A stretch of 64,000 nucleotides of DNA from a virus. Below the pieces are notes generated by a model. The model saw only the letters and a program-made list of their open reading frames with translations, ran no database searches and was not told the DNA's origin. Shown one piece after another: positions 12,478 through 64,000 of this stretch (the stretch's first letter is position 1; each line of letters opens with the position of its first letter). The stretch lies in IMG/VR virus record IMGVR_UViG_2974645756_000001, positions 58,062 to 122,061 of that record; one strand, 5' to 3'. Both the position numbers and the translations under genes were made by a program.

Positions 12478-12518
12478 AAAAAATCCCATTGTTATGTCAA
12501 TGGGATTTTTTATATTTG
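12478..12518 (+). promoter_or_regulatory. stem-loop plus TATATTTG promoter cassette
   Basis: AAAAAATCCCATTG-TTATGT-CAATGGGATTTTTT directly followed by TATATTTG. Confidence 0.75.
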
Positions 12519-12541
12519 TAGAGTCAAAAGATAAGAACATT

Positions 12542-15500
12542 ATGTTATATAAAAACAGTAATCAAGTAATACCACAAGAGGCAAGAAAAGATATCAATAA
12601 TAAAATTCTTCACTTAATTGAGACAGGTGATTTGCAAGGGTTGAGTCGAGAAGATATTTATAATGCATATACAGGTGATGGTGGTTTACATGGGTTAGAG
12701 TTCAAAAATTACAATTCATTCTACGATTATACAGAGGCTAAGAAACAGGTTGAGAATGGTCAATTTTTTACGCCAGCAACTACTGCACAAGATGTAGTTG
12801 ATACTTTAATGGTTCAACCAAGTGATTTAGTTGCAGACCTTACGTGTGGTCATGGTTCATTCTTCAATTACCTACCAACTCAATCAAATATTTACGGTAG
12901 TGATTTAGATAATAAAGCTGTAAGAGTTGCTAGATTTCTTTACCCAAAAGCAAATATAAAGAACCAAGACATTAGAGAATATGAACCAAATGTAAAGTTT
13001 GATTCAATCATAATCAACCCACCATTAATTTAAAGTTTGGTGATATGAGTTCTCAAATGTATGTTTGTCAAAAGTCTGCTGAGTTAATGAAACCACTTTC
13101 TTTGATGGCTTTAATTGTTCCTAAATCATTTTTGAATGATGAAATGATTAATAAAAAGACATTGAGCGAATGAATGAGTATTTCAATTTCGTTGGTCAGT
13201 ATGCGTTAAATCCGAAAGAATTTAAACAAATGGGTGTTGATTATTTCGAGACAAAAGTAATGTTCTTCCAAAGAAAATCAGAATTTGTTGATGATGTTCC
13301 TTTTATTAATATCTACAATGAACGTGATTATATTAAGGCTAGTATAGGCGATTTAAGAGCAGTTAAATCAACTTTAAAGGCTAAGACCCTTTCAGAGATT
13401 AAAAGCGATGATTCTGACTTCTCATATAGAGTTAAGAAGTATTTATATGAGTTTAAAACACACAAAAACTTACAATACTATTCTTCAAAGGCTGAGGCGT
13501 TAATTGAAAAATTCAATACTCAAAATAAACCTGAGGGGATGGAGTATAAAGAATGGGATAATATTAAATTAACCGAGGCTAAAGTATTAGCAACATTTAA
13601 GCGAGTTATGAAAAACGCTTATATAGTTGACCGTGATGTTATCCGAGTTGTTAAGCAGAACCATACGTTCAAAATCAAGCCATATAGCGGTAAAATGAAG
13701 CACGTAATTTCAAAAAAGGTATCAAACCCTCATATGAATATTTCACAGCTTGTAGCGTATCGTGGTGAGTTTGAAAAGTTCCTAACCGCATGTAAAGTTT
13801 TAAACTTAGATACTACAGAATTAACAAAGGTTGTTAACCGAAAGTATAAAGATTATTTACTACACAACGCAAGCATTAAGGATATACAACCTAGTAAAGA
13901 AATTAAACGTTTTGTAAATAGCTTTAAGTTTATTTCCAAAGGTAAAGTTTGTAAACTAACCAAAATTCAAAAAGAAGATATCGGTAAAGTTTTAACTAGA
14001 AAACACACACTACTTGGTTGGAGTATGGGTGGTGGTAAAAGCGTTGCTTTGTTGTGTATGATTAAATATATAAATAAACACAAATTATCTAAAAATGTTT
14101 TTGTGACTGCACCAGCAATTGCATTGGATTTAACATTAAAGAATTTTTTATCTCATAATGGTGTTGATTTTATAGAAATAAAAAACGCTAACCAACTTAA
14201 AAATATTAAAGATGGTAAAGTAGTTTTAATGACTTTGGGAAGACTTAGTATGTCTAAGGATTCTGTTAAAGAGTTTGTTAAATCAAAGAGTAACAAAGTT
14301 AGTATTTTGTTTGATGAGGTGGATGAAATAAAAAACAGATTATCTAAACGTTCACGAGCAGTTATTAATGCTTTTCGTAGATGTCACCGAACATTTTGTT
14401 TTACTGGAACACCAACAAGAAACAACATAAATGAGATATATGCTATTTTAGAATTAATGTATAATAATTCACATAATATGATGTGTGAAGTGTCTTCTAT
14501 TTATACACAAGACAAGAAGAGTAAAGAAATAAAAAACAAACCAAATAATAAAAAACAATTACCGTTTGATGCATACTATGGGTTTGGTTTATTCAAGTCT
14601 TGTTTTTCACCATCAAAAACAACAGTATTTGGTATAAAGAAAGACACCCAAAATATATTTAATACTGATGAGTTAAAACGAATTGTAGAACGCACAGTTA
14701 TTATTAGAAGTTCTGAGGAACTAATGGGTGATAAGAAAATTATTAAATCACACTTTGTTCAACCAAATTTAGCGGAACGTGAATTACAGGAGACTATAAT
14801 GAAAGAATTTCATCAAATATGTTATACATACTTTAGGTCAACTGGAAATAGTAGAAAGGAATCATATCTAAGAATCATCAGAATGATTAATTTATTGATT
14901 AAGAGTTGTACAGCACCACATTTAATGAATGATTGGAACGGTCAAGGATTACCAACTAAATATTCAAAGGTTCTTAAAATGATTGGCGAAAGACCAAATG
15001 AACCAATTATGATTGGGTGTGTAGGTATACCAAGTACACAAAGTTATTATGATGAAATAAAAAATAAGTATCCAAACAGACGTGTGTATTATGTTGATGG
15101 TACAATACCTTTTAAAAAAAGAAAACAAATAGTAGATGAATTTAACAACTCAGATAATGCAATATTAGTAAGCAACCAAGCATCATTAAAATCAAGTGTT
15201 TCTATAGAGAAATGTAATACTGTTATAATACCATCTTTGCCATGGAATTATGCTTCGCTTTCACAATACTTCTATCGTGCAATTAGATTTGATTCTGAAC
15301 ATAAAACAGAGGTTCATTTAATTACATATACTGATAGTATTGACTTAAATGTATTACAACTATTATTAAATAAAGAGAAGATTAATAATTTCATTAAAAC
15401 TGGTGATGAATCAACAGATGAAGAAGTAAATGAAGAGTTTGGTGTTGATGGTGATGTATTAGGTAGTGTTATTGAAAAATATTACGATGAAGAGGGTGGT

Positions 15501-15542
15501 ATGAGATTTATGTTAGGTTCTGAATCAAAAAGAGTGAGTTAA
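12542..15542 (+). CDS. N6-adenine DNA methyltransferase - SNF2-family helicase fusion (~1000 aa; two 1-nt indels)
   Basis: GQFFTP, motif I DLTCGHG and NPP(F) motif IV; adding one T near 13025 and one A near 13155 joins it to the helicase ORF (MGGGKS, DEVD, TGTP, QYFYRAIR). Confidence 0.82.
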
Positions 15543-59740: not shown

Positions 59741-60853
59741 ATGAATATACAAGAAGTATTAAATAAGTCTCTTGAAGAGCGTAAAGAAATTTTCAACAAT
59801 GCTAAAGTAGCATATTATGAAACAGACTCACCAATAATGTCTGATTCTGATTATGATTTGTTAGAAGAGTCTATCATTACAGATTCACATGATGATATGT
59901 TTATTGGTGTTAATTCAAGACACAATAAAGCCGAACACAGAAATAAAATGTTATCATTAAAAAAGCATAACATTAATATTGATGGGTCTGATACAGATTC
60001 TGTATTACTTGAAGCATTCAATAAATTGGGTGGTGGTAGATACACATTAGGTTTATCAATGAAGTATGATGGATTGGCTGTTGATGTAGATTTTGAAAAC
60101 CGAACACTAAAACAAATTGCAACTCGTGGTGATGGTAGTATGGGAGTTAATAGAACAAATAAACTAAGACATATTATTGATAACGACCCATCTTGGCAAA
60201 TGTTATTTGATAAGTTTGTTACAGGTAATGTTCGTTGTGAGTGTATAGTTGATTACCCAACATTTGAAGAACATTATATAGATAGTGGTAAGAAACATCC
60301 ACGTAATGTAGCAAGTGGATTAGTTGGTGATGAGAATCTTGAAGCTGGTGTAGGTCATTTAAGATTGGTTGCGTTAGAGGGTATTGATTCTAGTGGCTTA
60401 ATTATCACATCAAGAACATTAGACATGTATTTGACTGATGTTAGAAATGAAATTAACAATATTGAAACATATGAAGACCTAAAACAAGTGTTCCAATCAT
60501 TTAAAGAACGTAGACAGGACTTCATAGAACCAACAGATGGTTTAGTACTTTCAAAGTCATCAACCAATATGGAATTTAAACATGATGGTAAGTATCCTGA
60601 ACATGCATTGTGTATTAAGTTCAGTTCACCAAACTTTAAAGCTACTGTTACTGATATTGAATGGAATTTACAAAAGACAGGTAGATATGTACCTAAGGTA
60701 TATTTCACACCAATTACCGTTGATGGTAGAGATATTGTAAAGGCTAGTGGACACAACCTAGATTGGTTAGTTAGAAATAACATCAAGGTTGGTAAAGAAA
60801 TTACTATACAATTATCAGGTGACATCATACCATATATTTTGACAGATGTATAA
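59741..60853 (+). CDS. ligA: NAD-dependent DNA ligase, short form (Ia + adenylation + OB)
   Basis: YY...PIMSDSDYD, MLSL, KYDG, TRGDG, HPRNVASG, DGLVL, ASGHN, SGDIIP. Confidence 0.9.
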   Translation: MNIQEVLNKSLEERKEIFNNAKVAYYETDSPIMSDSDYDLLEESIITDSHDDMFIGVNSRHNKAEHRNKMLSLKKHNINIDGSDTDSVLLEAFNKLGGGRYTLGLSMKYDGLAVDVDFENRTLKQIATRGDGSMGVNRTNKLRHIIDNDPSWQMLFDKFVTGNVRCECIVDYPTFEEHYIDSGKKHPRNVASGLVGDENLEAGVGHLRLVALEGIDSSGLIITSRTLDMYLTDVRNEINNIETYEDLKQVFQSFKERRQDFIEPTDGLVLSKSSTNMEFKHDGKYPEHALCIKFSSPNFKATVTDIEWNLQKTGRYVPKVYFTPITVDGRDIVKASGHNLDWLVRNNIKVGKEITIQLSGDIIPYILTDV

Positions 60854-61187: not shown

Positions 61188-61602
61188 TTTATTCAAACGA
61201 AATAAGACAAAGGGTTTAAAAACTAACCTACTTAGAAAAATAAGGTCACATAAATTTAAATACTATCCTGAGGATAGATTGATTATTATATCTGATAAAA
61301 ATTACAATGAGGTTTTTAGATTAGAGAAAATAACCATACCAACAAACAAAAGAAACTATAGTTTCTCAGGACAATTACATGGTATTATCATTTATTTTGA
61401 TGATTATTATGATTTTATGAAATATATTTACTATTATATTTTATGTCCTAATACTGATATATTCGATATAGCAACCAGCTATTCTAGTACTAAAAAGTTA
61501 CATAATGTTGTACATAGATTATATCATTATAATAAGTACTATAAAAGGGTTAAGAAAGCATCAATAATAAATAATGAAACACCTAAGCGTTTATGGAAAT
61601 AA
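61180..61602 (+). CDS. hypothetical protein
   Basis: 140-aa ORF. Confidence 0.55.
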   Translation: MFNLFKRNKTKGLKTNLLRKIRSHKFKYYPEDRLIIISDKNYNEVFRLEKITIPTNKRNYSFSGQLHGIIIYFDDYYDFMKYIYYYILCPNTDIFDIATSYSSTKKLHNVVHRLYHYNKYYKRVKKASIINNETPKRLWK

Positions 61603-62632
61603 GTGCTAAAGAAATTAAATTGAGTGGTAGTGTTTTATACATACCAATATACTCTATGCGTGATAAAAAAACTGGGCAATATATTCCATCAATGGATGGT
61701 AATATAAACAGTATGCTACATAGATTATATAATAATAGACATGATGTAAATGAGGTGATGATTGCTATACCAAATATTAAGAAATTAAATATTGGTGAAC
61801 TTGAAAAACTCAGAAAATCTATTAAGTCTATTGGTATAAATAATGTTGATTATTTGCCGTTATCATGGTTATATGGTTCTAGTGTAGGTAATACAAGATT
61901 AAAGGCATTAGCATTTGAAGATAAATTCGATACGGAATATATAGAGCCTACCGTTACTGTTTGTGAATTACCAATTGATATTAAATCTAATACCAAGGTT
62001 TTTTATAATTATAATTGGAATGCTGTTGACAACACAAATGATTTATTAAATCTTAGTTTCAACGTGAGGTTGAGTTATCGAAGAAACATGATACATTTTT
62101 ATTCTCAGATATTCAATATAGATATTGGGCTAGTAGGATTAGTCAAATAAAGGACATTAAAAGTAAATTTTGGAGGTCTATCGACATTTATTCTAGTGAA
62201 TTATTTGAAGAAATATCACAAACAGAAATTGATAATTTCATGGATGGGATATCAAAAAAAGAACTTAACTTCTTTAATAATATATTACCGAAAGAAGATA
62301 TTGTATTTTATCCGATGAGGGTTGATGACCCTAGATATGACTTCAAATGCATATTGGATTATGTTGAAGAGAGTAATAAACTAATGGTTATAACAAACCC
62401 AACAAATATTGAAATAGAGTATAATCATCATATCATTGATTTATCTGATAGTGTTAATAAAAGAGGTTTATACTTTAAGATATTATCCAAGTTAAAATCA
62501 TCTGATAGAATCATACATGCGTGTGATGATGTACACATATCATTATTTGAACAATTATCTTTAAGTGAGGCTGATGTTACATTTAACGACACTATGCACA
62601 TTTTAGATATTGATACATATATAAAATCCTAG
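61593..62632 (+). CDS. putative DNA glycosyltransferase (RB69 ORF003c-like, recalled); one 1-nt indel near 62055
   Basis: the two track ORFs join with one added base (~346 aa); motifs IPIYSMR..DGN, YNYN, FYPMRVDDPRY.F, ITNPTN, YFKIL, H.SLFE. Confidence 0.55.
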
Positions 62633-62772
62633 ACCAAACTCTACTTAAATCCACGATACGAACCCCCGAAATAATGGATAAGTTTTAACCTTAAATATTA
62701 GCATATGATTAGTTTATGGGGGTTTACTAAATCTATGCAAATTTGTTCCACAACCTACTACGGGGAACTTCA

Positions 62773-62831
62773 AAACACACCGAATTTTTTCGGTGTGTTT
62801 CTTGTTTATATAATATTTTTGTTTATATTTG
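62773..62831 (+). promoter_or_regulatory. stem-loop plus TATATTTG promoter cassette
   Basis: AAACACACCGAA...TTCGGTGTGTTT, then TATATTTG at 62824..62831. Confidence 0.7.
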
Positions 62832-62851
62832 CAGTATCAAAATAATAACAG

Positions 62852-64000
62852 ATGAAGAAACCACACATTATTATATTAGCTTGCGGTAAGGCAACAAGAC
62901 TATTACCGATACACAATAATAACTACCCAAAGTTATTATGTAATGCAGGTACTAAAACAATAATGGAACGTATTTTAGAATCACAACCAATTTATAGAAA
63001 AAGAACTATTGTTGTAAATAATAAACAATATTATATGCAATTATTAACTTATTTAAAGTTGATTGGTATTGATGATGTGAATGTTGTTTGTTTAAAAGAT
63101 GGTGGTACAAGTACACACGATGACTTGAAGTTATTCATCCAAGGTGAATCCGAACATGATTTTGATGATGTAATTCTTACATGGTCTGATATAATGCCAA
63201 AAAAGATATATGATTTGCGTGGTGTGAACTTTAAAAATAATGTTATATTCACAGACACTAATCCAAGACATAGATACAATGCATCAAACAATACAATAGA
63301 GCATAGACCTTTACAAGATGGTAATGTTGTTGGGTTATATTTTATAAAGAACTTATTAGATTTTATAAATCCTAATGATTATCCATATGGGTTGGATGTT
63401 ATTGATATTTTCAAAGACCGTGATTTTGATACAATTGAAGTTCCTTTCCATGACCTTGGTGATGTTGATAAGTATACCGAATTTATATCACATGAGGACA
63501 TTTCAGCACGTTTCTTTAATAAATTGACCATATACCCTAATGAAGTGTTAAAGTGCGCTAAAAATGATATGGGTAAGTCTATAATCAACCGTGAGGGTGA
63601 TTATTATGAGCATATAAAAGGTACGCAAGCAGGTGAAGTATTCCCTGAACTAATTGAACGTGATTCGGATTATGCAATAATGTTAAAGCGTGTATTAGGT
63701 CATACTATTTATGATTATATTTTATGGTATGGTGATGTTAATCACAAAGATTATGAACTAGCGCATAGGTTAATTGGTATGTTTAAAAATAACATTGATA
63801 AACTACACAACAGTAGTTCACATTCATTAACAAAAGAAGAAATAACATCAGCAACAGGTATTGAATATTATGCTAGTGTTATTGAGAGGTTAAAAAAGGT
63901 TAATAATTTAATACCAAATGTTACAAATGTTAATGGTATTGATGTTAGTTTTGCGGAAGTTGTTTACCATATTCTACCTGAATTAAGAACTAGATTATGT
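62852..64000 (+). CDS. sugar-phosphate nucleotidyltransferase fused to a kinase-like domain (3' end outside the window)
   Basis: IILACGKATRLLPI...PKLL signature, TWSD, DLGD, then RFFNKL...E..YY...FPEL kinase-like region; open to the window end. Confidence 0.75.
   Translation, partial: MKKPHIIILACGKATRLLPIHNNNYPKLLCNAGTKTIMERILESQPIYRKRTIVVNNKQYYMQLLTYLKLIGIDDVNVVCLKDGGTSTHDDLKLFIQGESEHDFDDVILTWSDIMPKKIYDLRGVNFKNNVIFTDTNPRHRYNASNNTIEHRPLQDGNVVGLYFIKNLLDFINPNDYPYGLDVIDIFKDRDFDTIEVPFHDLGDVDKYTEFISHEDISARFFNKLTIYPNEVLKCAKNDMGKSIINREGDYYEHIKGTQAGEVFPELIERDSDYAIMLKRVLGHTIYDYILWYGDVNHKDYELAHRLIGMFKNNIDKLHNSSSHSLTKEEITSATGIEYYASVIERLKKVNNLIPNVTNVNGIDVSFAEVVYHILPELRTRLC

Follow-up and report, generated by a model that had tools for sequence, protein, structure and literature searches.

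Architecture of the locus

The stretch of DNA under study, called the window throughout, comprises 64,000 nucleotides (bases 58062-122061 of the 224,680-bp virus record IMGVR_UViG_2974645756_000001; G+C 29.7%), and our subject is its last 2.4 kb, which hold an interrupted gene for a putative DNA glycosyltransferase of the GT-B fold and the start of a gene for an AfhE-like, bifunctional sugar-activating enzyme (Table 1). With a probability of about 0.72, we read this segment as the start of a gene set that replaces cytosine with glycosylated 5-hydroxycytosine, most likely O-arabinosylated, the set being completed by three genes that follow: the remainder of the AfhE-like gene and the genes for a His_Phos_1 phosphatase and a thymidylate-synthase (TS) homolog. 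The locus is a genuine, divergent member of the glycosyl-5-hydroxycytosine systems of the RB69 kind, harbored by a Bacteroidota jumbo phage. The initial annotation, made from the window alone, had proposed a sugar-hypermodification locus in such a phage and expected it to continue beyond the window, where further genes were indeed found. Homology, folds, signature residues and a conserved gene neighborhood support the pathway reading; the three core families (GT-B transferase, AfhE-like and TS-like) are all represented by recognizable members, and the HAD phosphatase and the isomerase are not.

In the table-11 listing of open reading frames (ORFs), the ORF of 185 amino acids (aa) that begins the transferase gene is followed by one that runs past the window's end. 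Read over the whole record, the latter extends to 521 aa, and genes of 234 and 225 aa come directly after it. Among the isolates visible to the comparison, the baseplate wedge protein comes closest to that of Tenacibaculum phage pT24, with 42% identity, and to that of Sphingomonas phage PAU; Prevotella megaphages and phages of Chryseobacterium and Flavobacterium match more weakly.

Table 1. Features of the window that bear on the proposed pathway (positions count from the first letter of the window)
Feature	Position	Strand	Basis or remark
GT-B DNA glycosyltransferase gene (putative), RB69 gp46:47 / DLP3 gp79 type ("arabinosyltransferase 1", phrog_3891)	61593..62632	+	346 aa when read through
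Transferase pieces as found in the record	61593-62150 (frame 0, 185 aa); open frame 62057-62632 (frame 2, 191 aa)	+	ORF listing
Frame break, one A missing	62060..62061	+	CAAC here, CAAAC in relatives
Terminator-like hairpin with T-rich tail, after the transferase gene	62773..62800	+	12-pair stem; 1 site against 0.1 expected in shuffles
TATATTTG, match to the Bacteroidota TAnnTTTG promoter element	62824..62831	+	21 nt before the AfhE-like ATG; function predicted
AfhE-like bifunctional enzyme, first 383 of 521 codons	62852..64000 (gene ends 417 nt past the window)	+	phrog_4098
AfhE-like domains: N-terminal, probable sugar-1-phosphate nucleotidyltransferase, C-terminal APH/choline-kinase-like sugar kinase	62852..64000	+	motifs, fold
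MazG-like nucleotide pyrophosphohydrolase, 150 aa	49357..49809	+	phrog_671 E 3e-37, PF03819 E 5.4e-4

The interrupted gene encodes a predicted GT-B transferase of the RB69 gp46:47 type

The two pieces of the transferase gene belong to one protein, as the initial annotation had assumed when it repaired them into a single reading frame. They are colinear both on the family profile phrog_3891 (E 3.9e-7 on profile positions 3-121, 5.2e-4 on 188-228) and on an intact relative, a 356-aa protein (L008:2430-3497) encoded on the 7.8-kb Logan contig that also carries the closest AfhE-like relative. The first piece pairs with residues 1-154 of this relative, ending in ...LLNLSF (40% identical, E 1e-36), and the second, whose first ATG comes only at 62240, pairs with it from residue 154 on (37% identical, E 2e-34), the junction lying exactly behind ...LLNLSF. 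Of the same profile, RB69 ORF047c makes up the N-terminal half (E 2e-95) and ORF046c the C-terminal half (E 8e-54); compared pairwise with the two pieces they give E values of 2e-7 and 2e-6, VPILSMRSYETGQYSILKDGN pairing with IPIYSMRDKKTGQYIPSMDGN, and the intact relatives on contigs L008 and L010 match phrog_3891 with E 1e-11 and 8e-16. The split gene is thus a homolog of RB69 gp46:47, the GT-B enzyme proposed to place the first sugar on the base, and its putative activity would be sugar transfer to 5-hydroxycytosine in DNA. The kinship suggested at the outset, to RB69 ORF003c, did not hold: BLASTP of the two pieces gave E values of 1.3 and 0.029 from scattered short matches, and ORF003c (gp3, beta-arabinosyltransferase 2) is phrog_8302.

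The pieces carry the motifs IPIYSMRDKKTGQYIPSMDGN, FYNYNW, F(Q/K)REVELSKKHDTF, FYPMRVDDPRYDF, ITNPTN, YFKIL and HISLFE; those quoted in the initial annotation are all there, with spacings that had been slightly mis-transcribed. Invariant in a 35-sequence alignment of the family are D33, N35, P58, R99, R240, H326 and E331, the columns in question being the D and N of DGN, a P, an R, the R and D of MRxDD, and the H and E of HxSxxEQ. Since these columns sit inside the quoted motifs, the motifs are not chance, and the read-through protein keeps 7/7 of the invariant and 11/11 of the near-invariant residues.

An AlphaFold2 model was obtained for the intact 356-aa relative, not for the window's broken gene, and reached a pLDDT of 93.5. 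All 50 PDB matches that Foldseek listed for this model have the GT-B fold (glycosyltransferases and UDP-sugar 2-epimerases), its mostly retaining GT-B neighbors being LmbT (8ixp), AviGT4, GlgM, MshA (3c4q), BshA (3mbo) and sucrose-phosphate synthase (6kih). Four of these structures, 3c4q, 6kih, 3mbo and 8ixp, have been published as neighbors of RB69 gp46:47 (3c4q and 6kih in particular), of DLP3 gp76/77/79 and of RL38J1 gp215 in a study that also treats ORF046/047 as one gene split by a sequencing error and names it arabinosyltransferase 1; in its tables, gp46:47 and gp79 are not among the entries marked as experimentally confirmed (Lee 2026, PMC13326640).

The family is rare, with 48 representative clusters among 1.84 billion proteins in an exhaustive HMMER search that used the intact relative as query, and it was matched only in phage genomes or phage-like contigs that also carry AfhE and TS genes. 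In four metagenomic members (P0024, P0030, P0031 and P0036) an SIS isomerase domain is fused to the C-terminus, a Rosetta-stone fusion that ties the DNA transferase to the supply of pentose phosphate. A tblastn search of GenBank phages with the two pieces returned no match, Pfam gave nothing usable for the pieces or for the intact relative, and the link of the pieces to the T4-like enzymes comes only through profile methods and that relative.

The frame break

To examine the interruption, Logan contigs of four public runs were aligned on window positions 61400-64000. Three strains (95-99% identical, from three studies, with the label seawater metagenome in two cases) contain one more A behind 62060, with which the gene becomes a single open frame of 346 codons, reading ...NLSFKREVELSKKHDTF... 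across the site; two of the three also have in-frame 9-nt deletions at 62127/62130. The sister assembly (226,876 bp) has the same gene broken elsewhere, near 61975, where a T is lost in CCAATTGAT; its N-terminal ORF is 151 aa long and diverges after ...CELP, and the 130-aa C-terminal ORF is identical between both assemblies. Because the break sites differ between the assemblies and three strains are intact, a sequencing or assembly error is the most likely cause, and we consider it fairly probable that the break at hand is a one-base assembly error.

Other explanations of the break were considered and set aside. A programmed frameshift or contingency locus is contradicted by the run, which is only AA/AAA, by the lack of a slippery heptamer, by the plainly open frame of the relatives and by the different position of the break in the sister assembly. 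An alternative genetic code in which TAG or TAA is read through does not help either, since stop codons of all three kinds abound in frame 2 upstream of 62054. The 22 split-frame junctions counted genome-wide on the coding strand were likewise rejected as evidence of assembly quality, given a rough estimate of ~14 by chance at 30% G+C and ~300 genes.

The AfhE-like gene

The initial annotation had described the next gene as an NTP-transferase fused to a kinase-like domain, and the family profile supports this architecture. Practically the entire 521-aa protein is covered by phrog_4098 (E 1.3e-75; residues 5-511 against profile positions 3-501), a profile of which RB69 gp53 (ORF053c) covers positions 1-219 and gp52 (ORF052c) positions 219-559. 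Over 515 residues it shares 27% identity with the enzyme of Serratia phage LC53, for which arabinosylated 5-hydroxydeoxycytidine has been cited (5hodC; Lee 2026, PMC13326640), and it is 28% identical to RB69 gp52; its N-terminal domain, a probable nucleotidyltransferase, is 28% identical to RB69 gp53 (E 7.5e-12). This domain has the nucleotidyltransferase motif GKATRLLP (G-K-x-T-R-L) and lies about the 21.2-bit cut-off of PF00483, the fragment reaching 21.6 bits and the whole protein 20.9; the AlphaFold model is poor for residues 83-200. In the C-terminal domain the kinase motifs HGDTNTTN and IDPRG are invariant in the alignment, and its AlphaFold model, of good confidence there, has APH(2'')-IIa (3ham) as top Foldseek match, followed by LicA and 5-methylthioribose kinase; 3ham is the published match for the RB69 C-terminal domain too (Lee 2026, PMC13326640).

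With the AfhE-like protein as query, tblastn brought up 329 phage records, the majority from T4-like phages that infect Escherichia, Acinetobacter, Klebsiella or Serratia; in some of them the matching gene is annotated as RB69ORF052c or adjoins an arabinose-5-phosphate isomerase. A search of IMG/VR for related loci with the same protein yielded no confirmed relative. For coliphage HY126 it has been reported that AfhE phosphorylates arabinose-5-phosphate at C1 and makes UDP-arabinose once the 5-phosphate has been removed (Lee 2026, PMC13326640). Two metagenomic proteins of ~900 aa (P0006 and P0008) carry an AfhE-like part fused to HAD phosphatase domains (PF13419, PF00702), which would place kinase, phosphatase and nucleotidyltransferase in one chain; one of the two also has a nucleoside deoxyribosyltransferase-like domain (PF05014).

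A hairpin and the TATATTTG element stand before the AfhE-like gene, and the same pair of hairpin and TAnnTTTG recurs after the stop of the TS-like gene, so that the three genes from the AfhE-like to the TS-like one look like a single operon.

The phosphatase and the TS homolog beyond the window

The 234-aa protein that follows the AfhE-like gene belongs to branch 1 of the histidine phosphatases (PF00300, E 9e-23) and has the catalytic motifs RHGET and GHG. Among solved structures it is nearest to PhoE and to the protein of PDB entry 3e9c (listed as Zgc:56074), which we take to be TIGAR, a fructose-2,6-bisphosphatase. It has no similarity to the HAD proteins of LC53 or RB69 and occupies the place of AfhF/gp51, the arabinose-1,5-bisphosphate 5-phosphatase, so that a histidine phosphatase stands where the initial annotation had looked for a HAD phosphatase; a tblastn search of the whole genome with RB69 gp51, a HAD protein, found nothing, and none of the GenBank phages was found to have a His_Phos_1 phosphatase beside Afh-type genes. 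The protein may do the job of AfhF, and it is not a member of the AfhF family.

The 225-aa protein is a TS homolog (PF00303, E 9.6e-9; phrog_160), and with it a candidate for the dCMP-modifying enzyme anticipated downstream was found, two genes further on. Its match to PDB entries 9iqc/9iqu has an E value of 3e-42; MilA, a CMP hydroxymethylase, reaches 1e-5 and thymidylate synthases no better than 3e-4, and the dCMP hydroxymethylase of T4 (gp42) is not among its PDB matches. The printed sequence of 9iqc/9iqu is almost that of RB69 gp48, and these entries probably represent the HY126 enzyme of He et al. Identity is 38% to RB69 gp48 and 22% to Escherichia coli ThyA; relative to the latter, the catalytic Cys146 is kept, Asn177 is replaced by Asp (N177D) and Asp169 by Asn (D169N), a combination shared by this protein, four relatives described below, RB69 and LC53. 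The QRSCD of E. coli reads MRSNN in this protein and the four relatives and MRSQN in RB69 and LC53. In published work N177D marks cytosine specificity and D169N is specific to 5-hydroxy-dCMP synthases, being found in every assayed TS homolog that made 5-hydroxy-dCMP, including nine picked on that residue alone (Lee 2026, PMC13326640). Its signature residues point to a predicted 5-hydroxy-dCMP synthase of the kind of RB69 gp48, DLP3 gp80 and the HY126 enzyme, the base then being 5-hydroxycytosine, not hydroxymethylcytosine; the initial annotation had left the choice between a dCMP hydroxylase and a hydroxymethylase, and it is the hydroxylase signature that the protein carries.

A separate, canonical ThyA is encoded at genome positions 199,569-201,143 (L005). 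Its gene forms a 525-aa frame over all of which the 266-position Pfam model is spread, implying an insertion of ~260 aa, possibly an intein or some other element.

Conservation of the gene set in relatives

Four related contigs (L008, L009, L010 and L014), whose AfhE-like proteins are 32-42% identical to that of the window's phage, have the AfhE-like, His_Phos_1 and D169N TS genes together in 4/4 cases, and the GT-B gene stands beside them in at least three of the four. Baseplate genes downstream are common to L009, L010 and L014, L008 being short. An SIS isomerase gene lies next to the same genes in L008 (phrog_5670, E 8e-33), L009 and L010. Contig L009 adds, inside its modification cluster, a U32 protein (phrog_5757, the PHROG of RB69 gp50), a gp45-type kinase and two GT32-like transferases, which hints at a more elaborate glycan in that phage. 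Its order (L009:3460-9362) is two GT32-like genes, a possible, weakly matching GT47-like gene, the gp45-type kinase, U32, GT-B and SIS, before the AfhE-like, His_Phos_1 and TS-like genes. The GT-B, AfhE-like and TS families are linked in this way across very distant phages.

Candidate parts elsewhere in the genome

Some 60 kb away, at genome positions 181,714-183,234, a GT32-like transferase gene adjoins a gp45-type, thymidylate-kinase-like gene (phrog_761). The GT32-like gene (PF04488/PF05704, DTD motif; genome 181714-182612, L015:2215-3113) is split into 204 and 75 aa in this record and encodes a single 299-aa protein in the sister assembly; Pfam finds nothing on the downstream piece, whose continuity with the first is shown by the intact sister protein. 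It is a candidate second sugar transferase. The MazG-like protein of Table 1, which is not orthologous to RB69 gp56 (phrog_173), is a candidate counterpart of the T4/RB69 dCTPase and would clear dCTP and feed dCMP to the hydroxylase.

A proposed pathway

Taken together, the genes allow the following route to be proposed. The TS homolog, acting as a flavin-dependent 5-hydroxy-dCMP synthase, a role suggested by its signature residues, would hydroxylate dCMP, and kinases (the gp45-like protein being a candidate) and the phage polymerase would bring 5-hydroxycytosine into DNA. On the sugar side, the kinase domain of the AfhE-like enzyme would phosphorylate arabinose-5-phosphate at C1; the histidine phosphatase would then remove the 5-phosphate, a step for which coliphages use the HAD enzyme AfhF, and the nucleotidyltransferase domain would make the nucleoside-diphosphate sugar. 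Finally, the GT-B enzyme would put the first sugar on the 5-hydroxyl in DNA, and the GT32-like enzyme may attach a second. A Gram-negative host that makes 3-deoxy-D-manno-octulosonate (Kdo) can supply arabinose-5-phosphate, and we take the Kdo pathway of the host as the probable source here, the isomerase function presumably being supplied by the host; in the relatives the source would be the SIS isomerase of the phage itself.

Weighing the reading and its alternatives

Several points weigh against the proposed pathway, the broadest of them being that the published set is partly missing or replaced and that sugar supply depends on a putative host contribution. A search for the SIS domain PF01380 over the whole 224,680-bp record, positive in 14/14 control genomes, found none, so that the isomerase predicted by the initial annotation (RB69 gp55 in the published set) is not in this genome and appears beside the same genes in three relatives. 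The genome has no homolog of the U32 protein of the RB69 cluster, tblastn of RB69 gp3 against the whole genome found nothing, and a gp56-type dCTPase and a HAD phosphatase are absent from it. The substrate of the histidine phosphatase is a guess. The transferase gene is interrupted in both assemblies of the phage pair, neither giving an uninterrupted frame, and identity to the T4-like enzymes is low, at ~25% over the full length of the relative and in local matches only for the window's protein; the AlphaFold model of the N-terminal domain of the AfhE-like protein is of low confidence over residues 83-200. How each step is catalyzed, which sugar is attached and that virions carry the modified base are points that we infer.

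The absences on the sugar side raise the question of whether the pathway is the same and the sugar is not arabinose, with the AfhE-like enzyme and the histidine phosphatase activating some other phosphosugar to give a different glycan, possibly extended by the GT32-like enzyme. Such a departure would fit the lack of an arabinose-5-phosphate isomerase in the genome, a phosphatase of a different superfamily from AfhF, an AfhE-like protein only 27-28% identical to the characterized type and a second transferase that is GT32-like, not gp3-like; moreover, the 5-hydroxycytosine of Rhizobium phage RL38J1 can bear hexoses (Lee 2026, PMC13326640). We nevertheless hold this to be unlikely, since three of the four relatives have an SIS isomerase of the arabinose-5-phosphate isomerase PHROG directly beside the AfhE-like gene and SIS domains occur as fusion partners within the transferase family. 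It is also generally known that a Kdo-making Gram-negative host could provide arabinose-5-phosphate. Arabinose, in our reading, stays the preferred sugar.

The interruptions invite a different doubt, namely that the one-base deletions are real and the pathway is truly broken in the isolate, leaving bare 5-hydroxycytosine or nothing, perhaps because the host used for propagation had a defence that recognizes glycosylated DNA and so favored the loss of glycosylation. The GT-B gene is interrupted at two places in the two sister assemblies, the GT32-like gene is interrupted in this record too, and T2 is known to evade a system that senses glucosyl-hydroxymethylcytosine through null mutations of its glucosyltransferase (bioRxiv 10.1101/2025.10.21.683753). 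Against this, the breaks differ between assemblies that are 99.5% identical (PMC8643167) and fall in very short runs (AAA, TT), a pattern fitting random indel errors; the conserved residues are intact on both sides of the break, the frame is open in three related strains from three studies, and the GT32-like gene is whole in the sister assembly. A broken pathway is on this balance quite unlikely. Very improbable, finally, is a locus with no part in DNA modification, in which the sugar enzymes would serve a glycoconjugate, for example on the virion or host surface, and the product of the TS homolog would be, as in T4, a pyrimidine with a hydroxymethyl or methyl group. Polysaccharide synthesis does commonly involve NTP-transferases, sugar kinases and GT-B enzymes, and Caps_synth-like GT32 genes occur in the clusters of some relatives, but a TS homolog with D169N and N177D that resembles the 5-hydroxy-dCMP synthase far more than it does any hydroxymethylase, a separate canonical ThyA, a transferase family confined in its matches to phages and phage-like contigs with AfhE and TS genes, and the linkage of the three families across very distant phages all speak for the modification of DNA.

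Other features of the genome

A compact NAD-dependent DNA ligase (370 aa, with adenylation and OB domains only) is encoded at window positions 59741-60853, two genes upstream of the transferase. At window positions 12494-15542, ORFs of 179 and 790 aa are separated by a gap of 136 nt; an earlier reading had taken them as a methyltransferase-SNF2 fusion needing two single-base repairs, and the 790-aa part is the same in the sister assembly except for its called start. The T4-type family-B DNA polymerase (genome 165486-171432) shows up as three separated matches to RB69 gp43 across ~6 kb, which suggests intervening elements or a split gene.

Comparison with known systems

The arabinosyl-5-hydroxycytosine pathway of the RB69 type has been described through RB69 gp45-gp55 and gp3, DLP3 gp76-83, the Afh enzymes of HY126, and LC53 (Thomas 2018, PMC6024577; Mahler 2025, Cell Host Microbe; He et al.; Lee 2026, PMC13326640), the chemistry in RB69 having since been revised to 5-hydroxycytosine with O-linked arabinose (PMC13326640). 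With this pathway the locus shares an orthologous first transferase (gp46:47, phrog_3891), an AfhE-type enzyme (phrog_4098) and a TS-like putative synthase that has Cys146, N177D and D169N; the genome also encodes a gp45-type kinase (phrog_761), and relatives have the SIS isomerase and the U32 protein (phrog_5757). It differs in its host phylum, Bacteroidota, and in its lineage, that of the 225-kb jumbo myoviruses resembling PTm1, pT24 and PAU instead of Straboviridae; in having a histidine phosphatase (PF00300) where the others have the HAD protein AfhF/gp51; and in lacking here the isomerase, U32, a gp3-type second transferase and a gp56-type dCTPase, the candidates for the last two roles being the GT32-like enzyme and the MazG-like protein. 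The genes are, furthermore, spread over two loci 60 kb apart, and identity to the T4-like proteins is only 25-38%.

In Rhizobium phage RL38J1 and other Pootjesviridae, as here, a D169N TS homolog adjoins a GT-B "transferase 1" and a kinase, and the structural neighbor LmbT (8ixp) is shared (Lee 2026, PMC13326640). RL38J1, however, uses galactose and glucose and has a UDP-galactopyranose mutase without an AfhE-type enzyme, whereas the present locus has the AfhE-type enzyme and its relatives an arabinose-5-phosphate isomerase. The resemblance to the glucosyl-hydroxymethylcytosine system of T4 (gp42, alpha- and beta-glucosyltransferases) lies in the plan: dCMP is altered by an enzyme of the TS family ahead of replication, and sugars are added to the DNA later by a GT-B enzyme, as a shield against restriction and Cas nucleases; the base of T4 is instead hydroxymethylcytosine, its glucose comes from host UDP-glucose, and it has no sugar-activation genes. 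The initial annotation saw here the strongest candidate for an undescribed system, and in this it went too far: the locus is a variant of the described arabinosyl-5-hydroxycytosine pathway, of a kind already known to be widespread. A search of the literature available for this analysis found no publication tying PTm1-type phages or any Bacteroidota phage to 5-hydroxycytosine or arabinosylation.

Implications

Glycosylated 5-hydroxycytosine was established only in 2025-2026, and its known occurrences so far are T4-like phages that infect Proteobacteria and the Pootjesviridae of Rhizobium; the locus predicts it in a different phage lineage and host phylum. With a histidine phosphatase in the place of the HAD enzyme and the isomerase lost, the locus would show which components of sugar supply can be exchanged, and the transferase-isomerase fusions are independent genomic support for the predicted assignment of "transferase 1".

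A bolder proposal, to which we give somewhat less than even odds as a whole, is that marine Flavobacteriia phages, including a cultured jumbo phage of the fish pathogen Tenacibaculum maritimum, fully swap cytosine for glycosylated 5-hydroxycytosine along a route peculiar to them: a histidine phosphatase would trim the bisphosphate, the host would provide the pentose phosphate and a GT-A enzyme of the GT32 type, instead of a GT-B enzyme, would add a second sugar. If true, this would be a glycan not yet seen on DNA and the first hypermodified cytosine known from any Bacteroidota phage. For the use of such phages against fish pathogens, modified DNA affects restriction mapping, the accuracy of long reads, host range as set by restriction and CRISPR, and how sensitive the phages are to defences that sense modified DNA.

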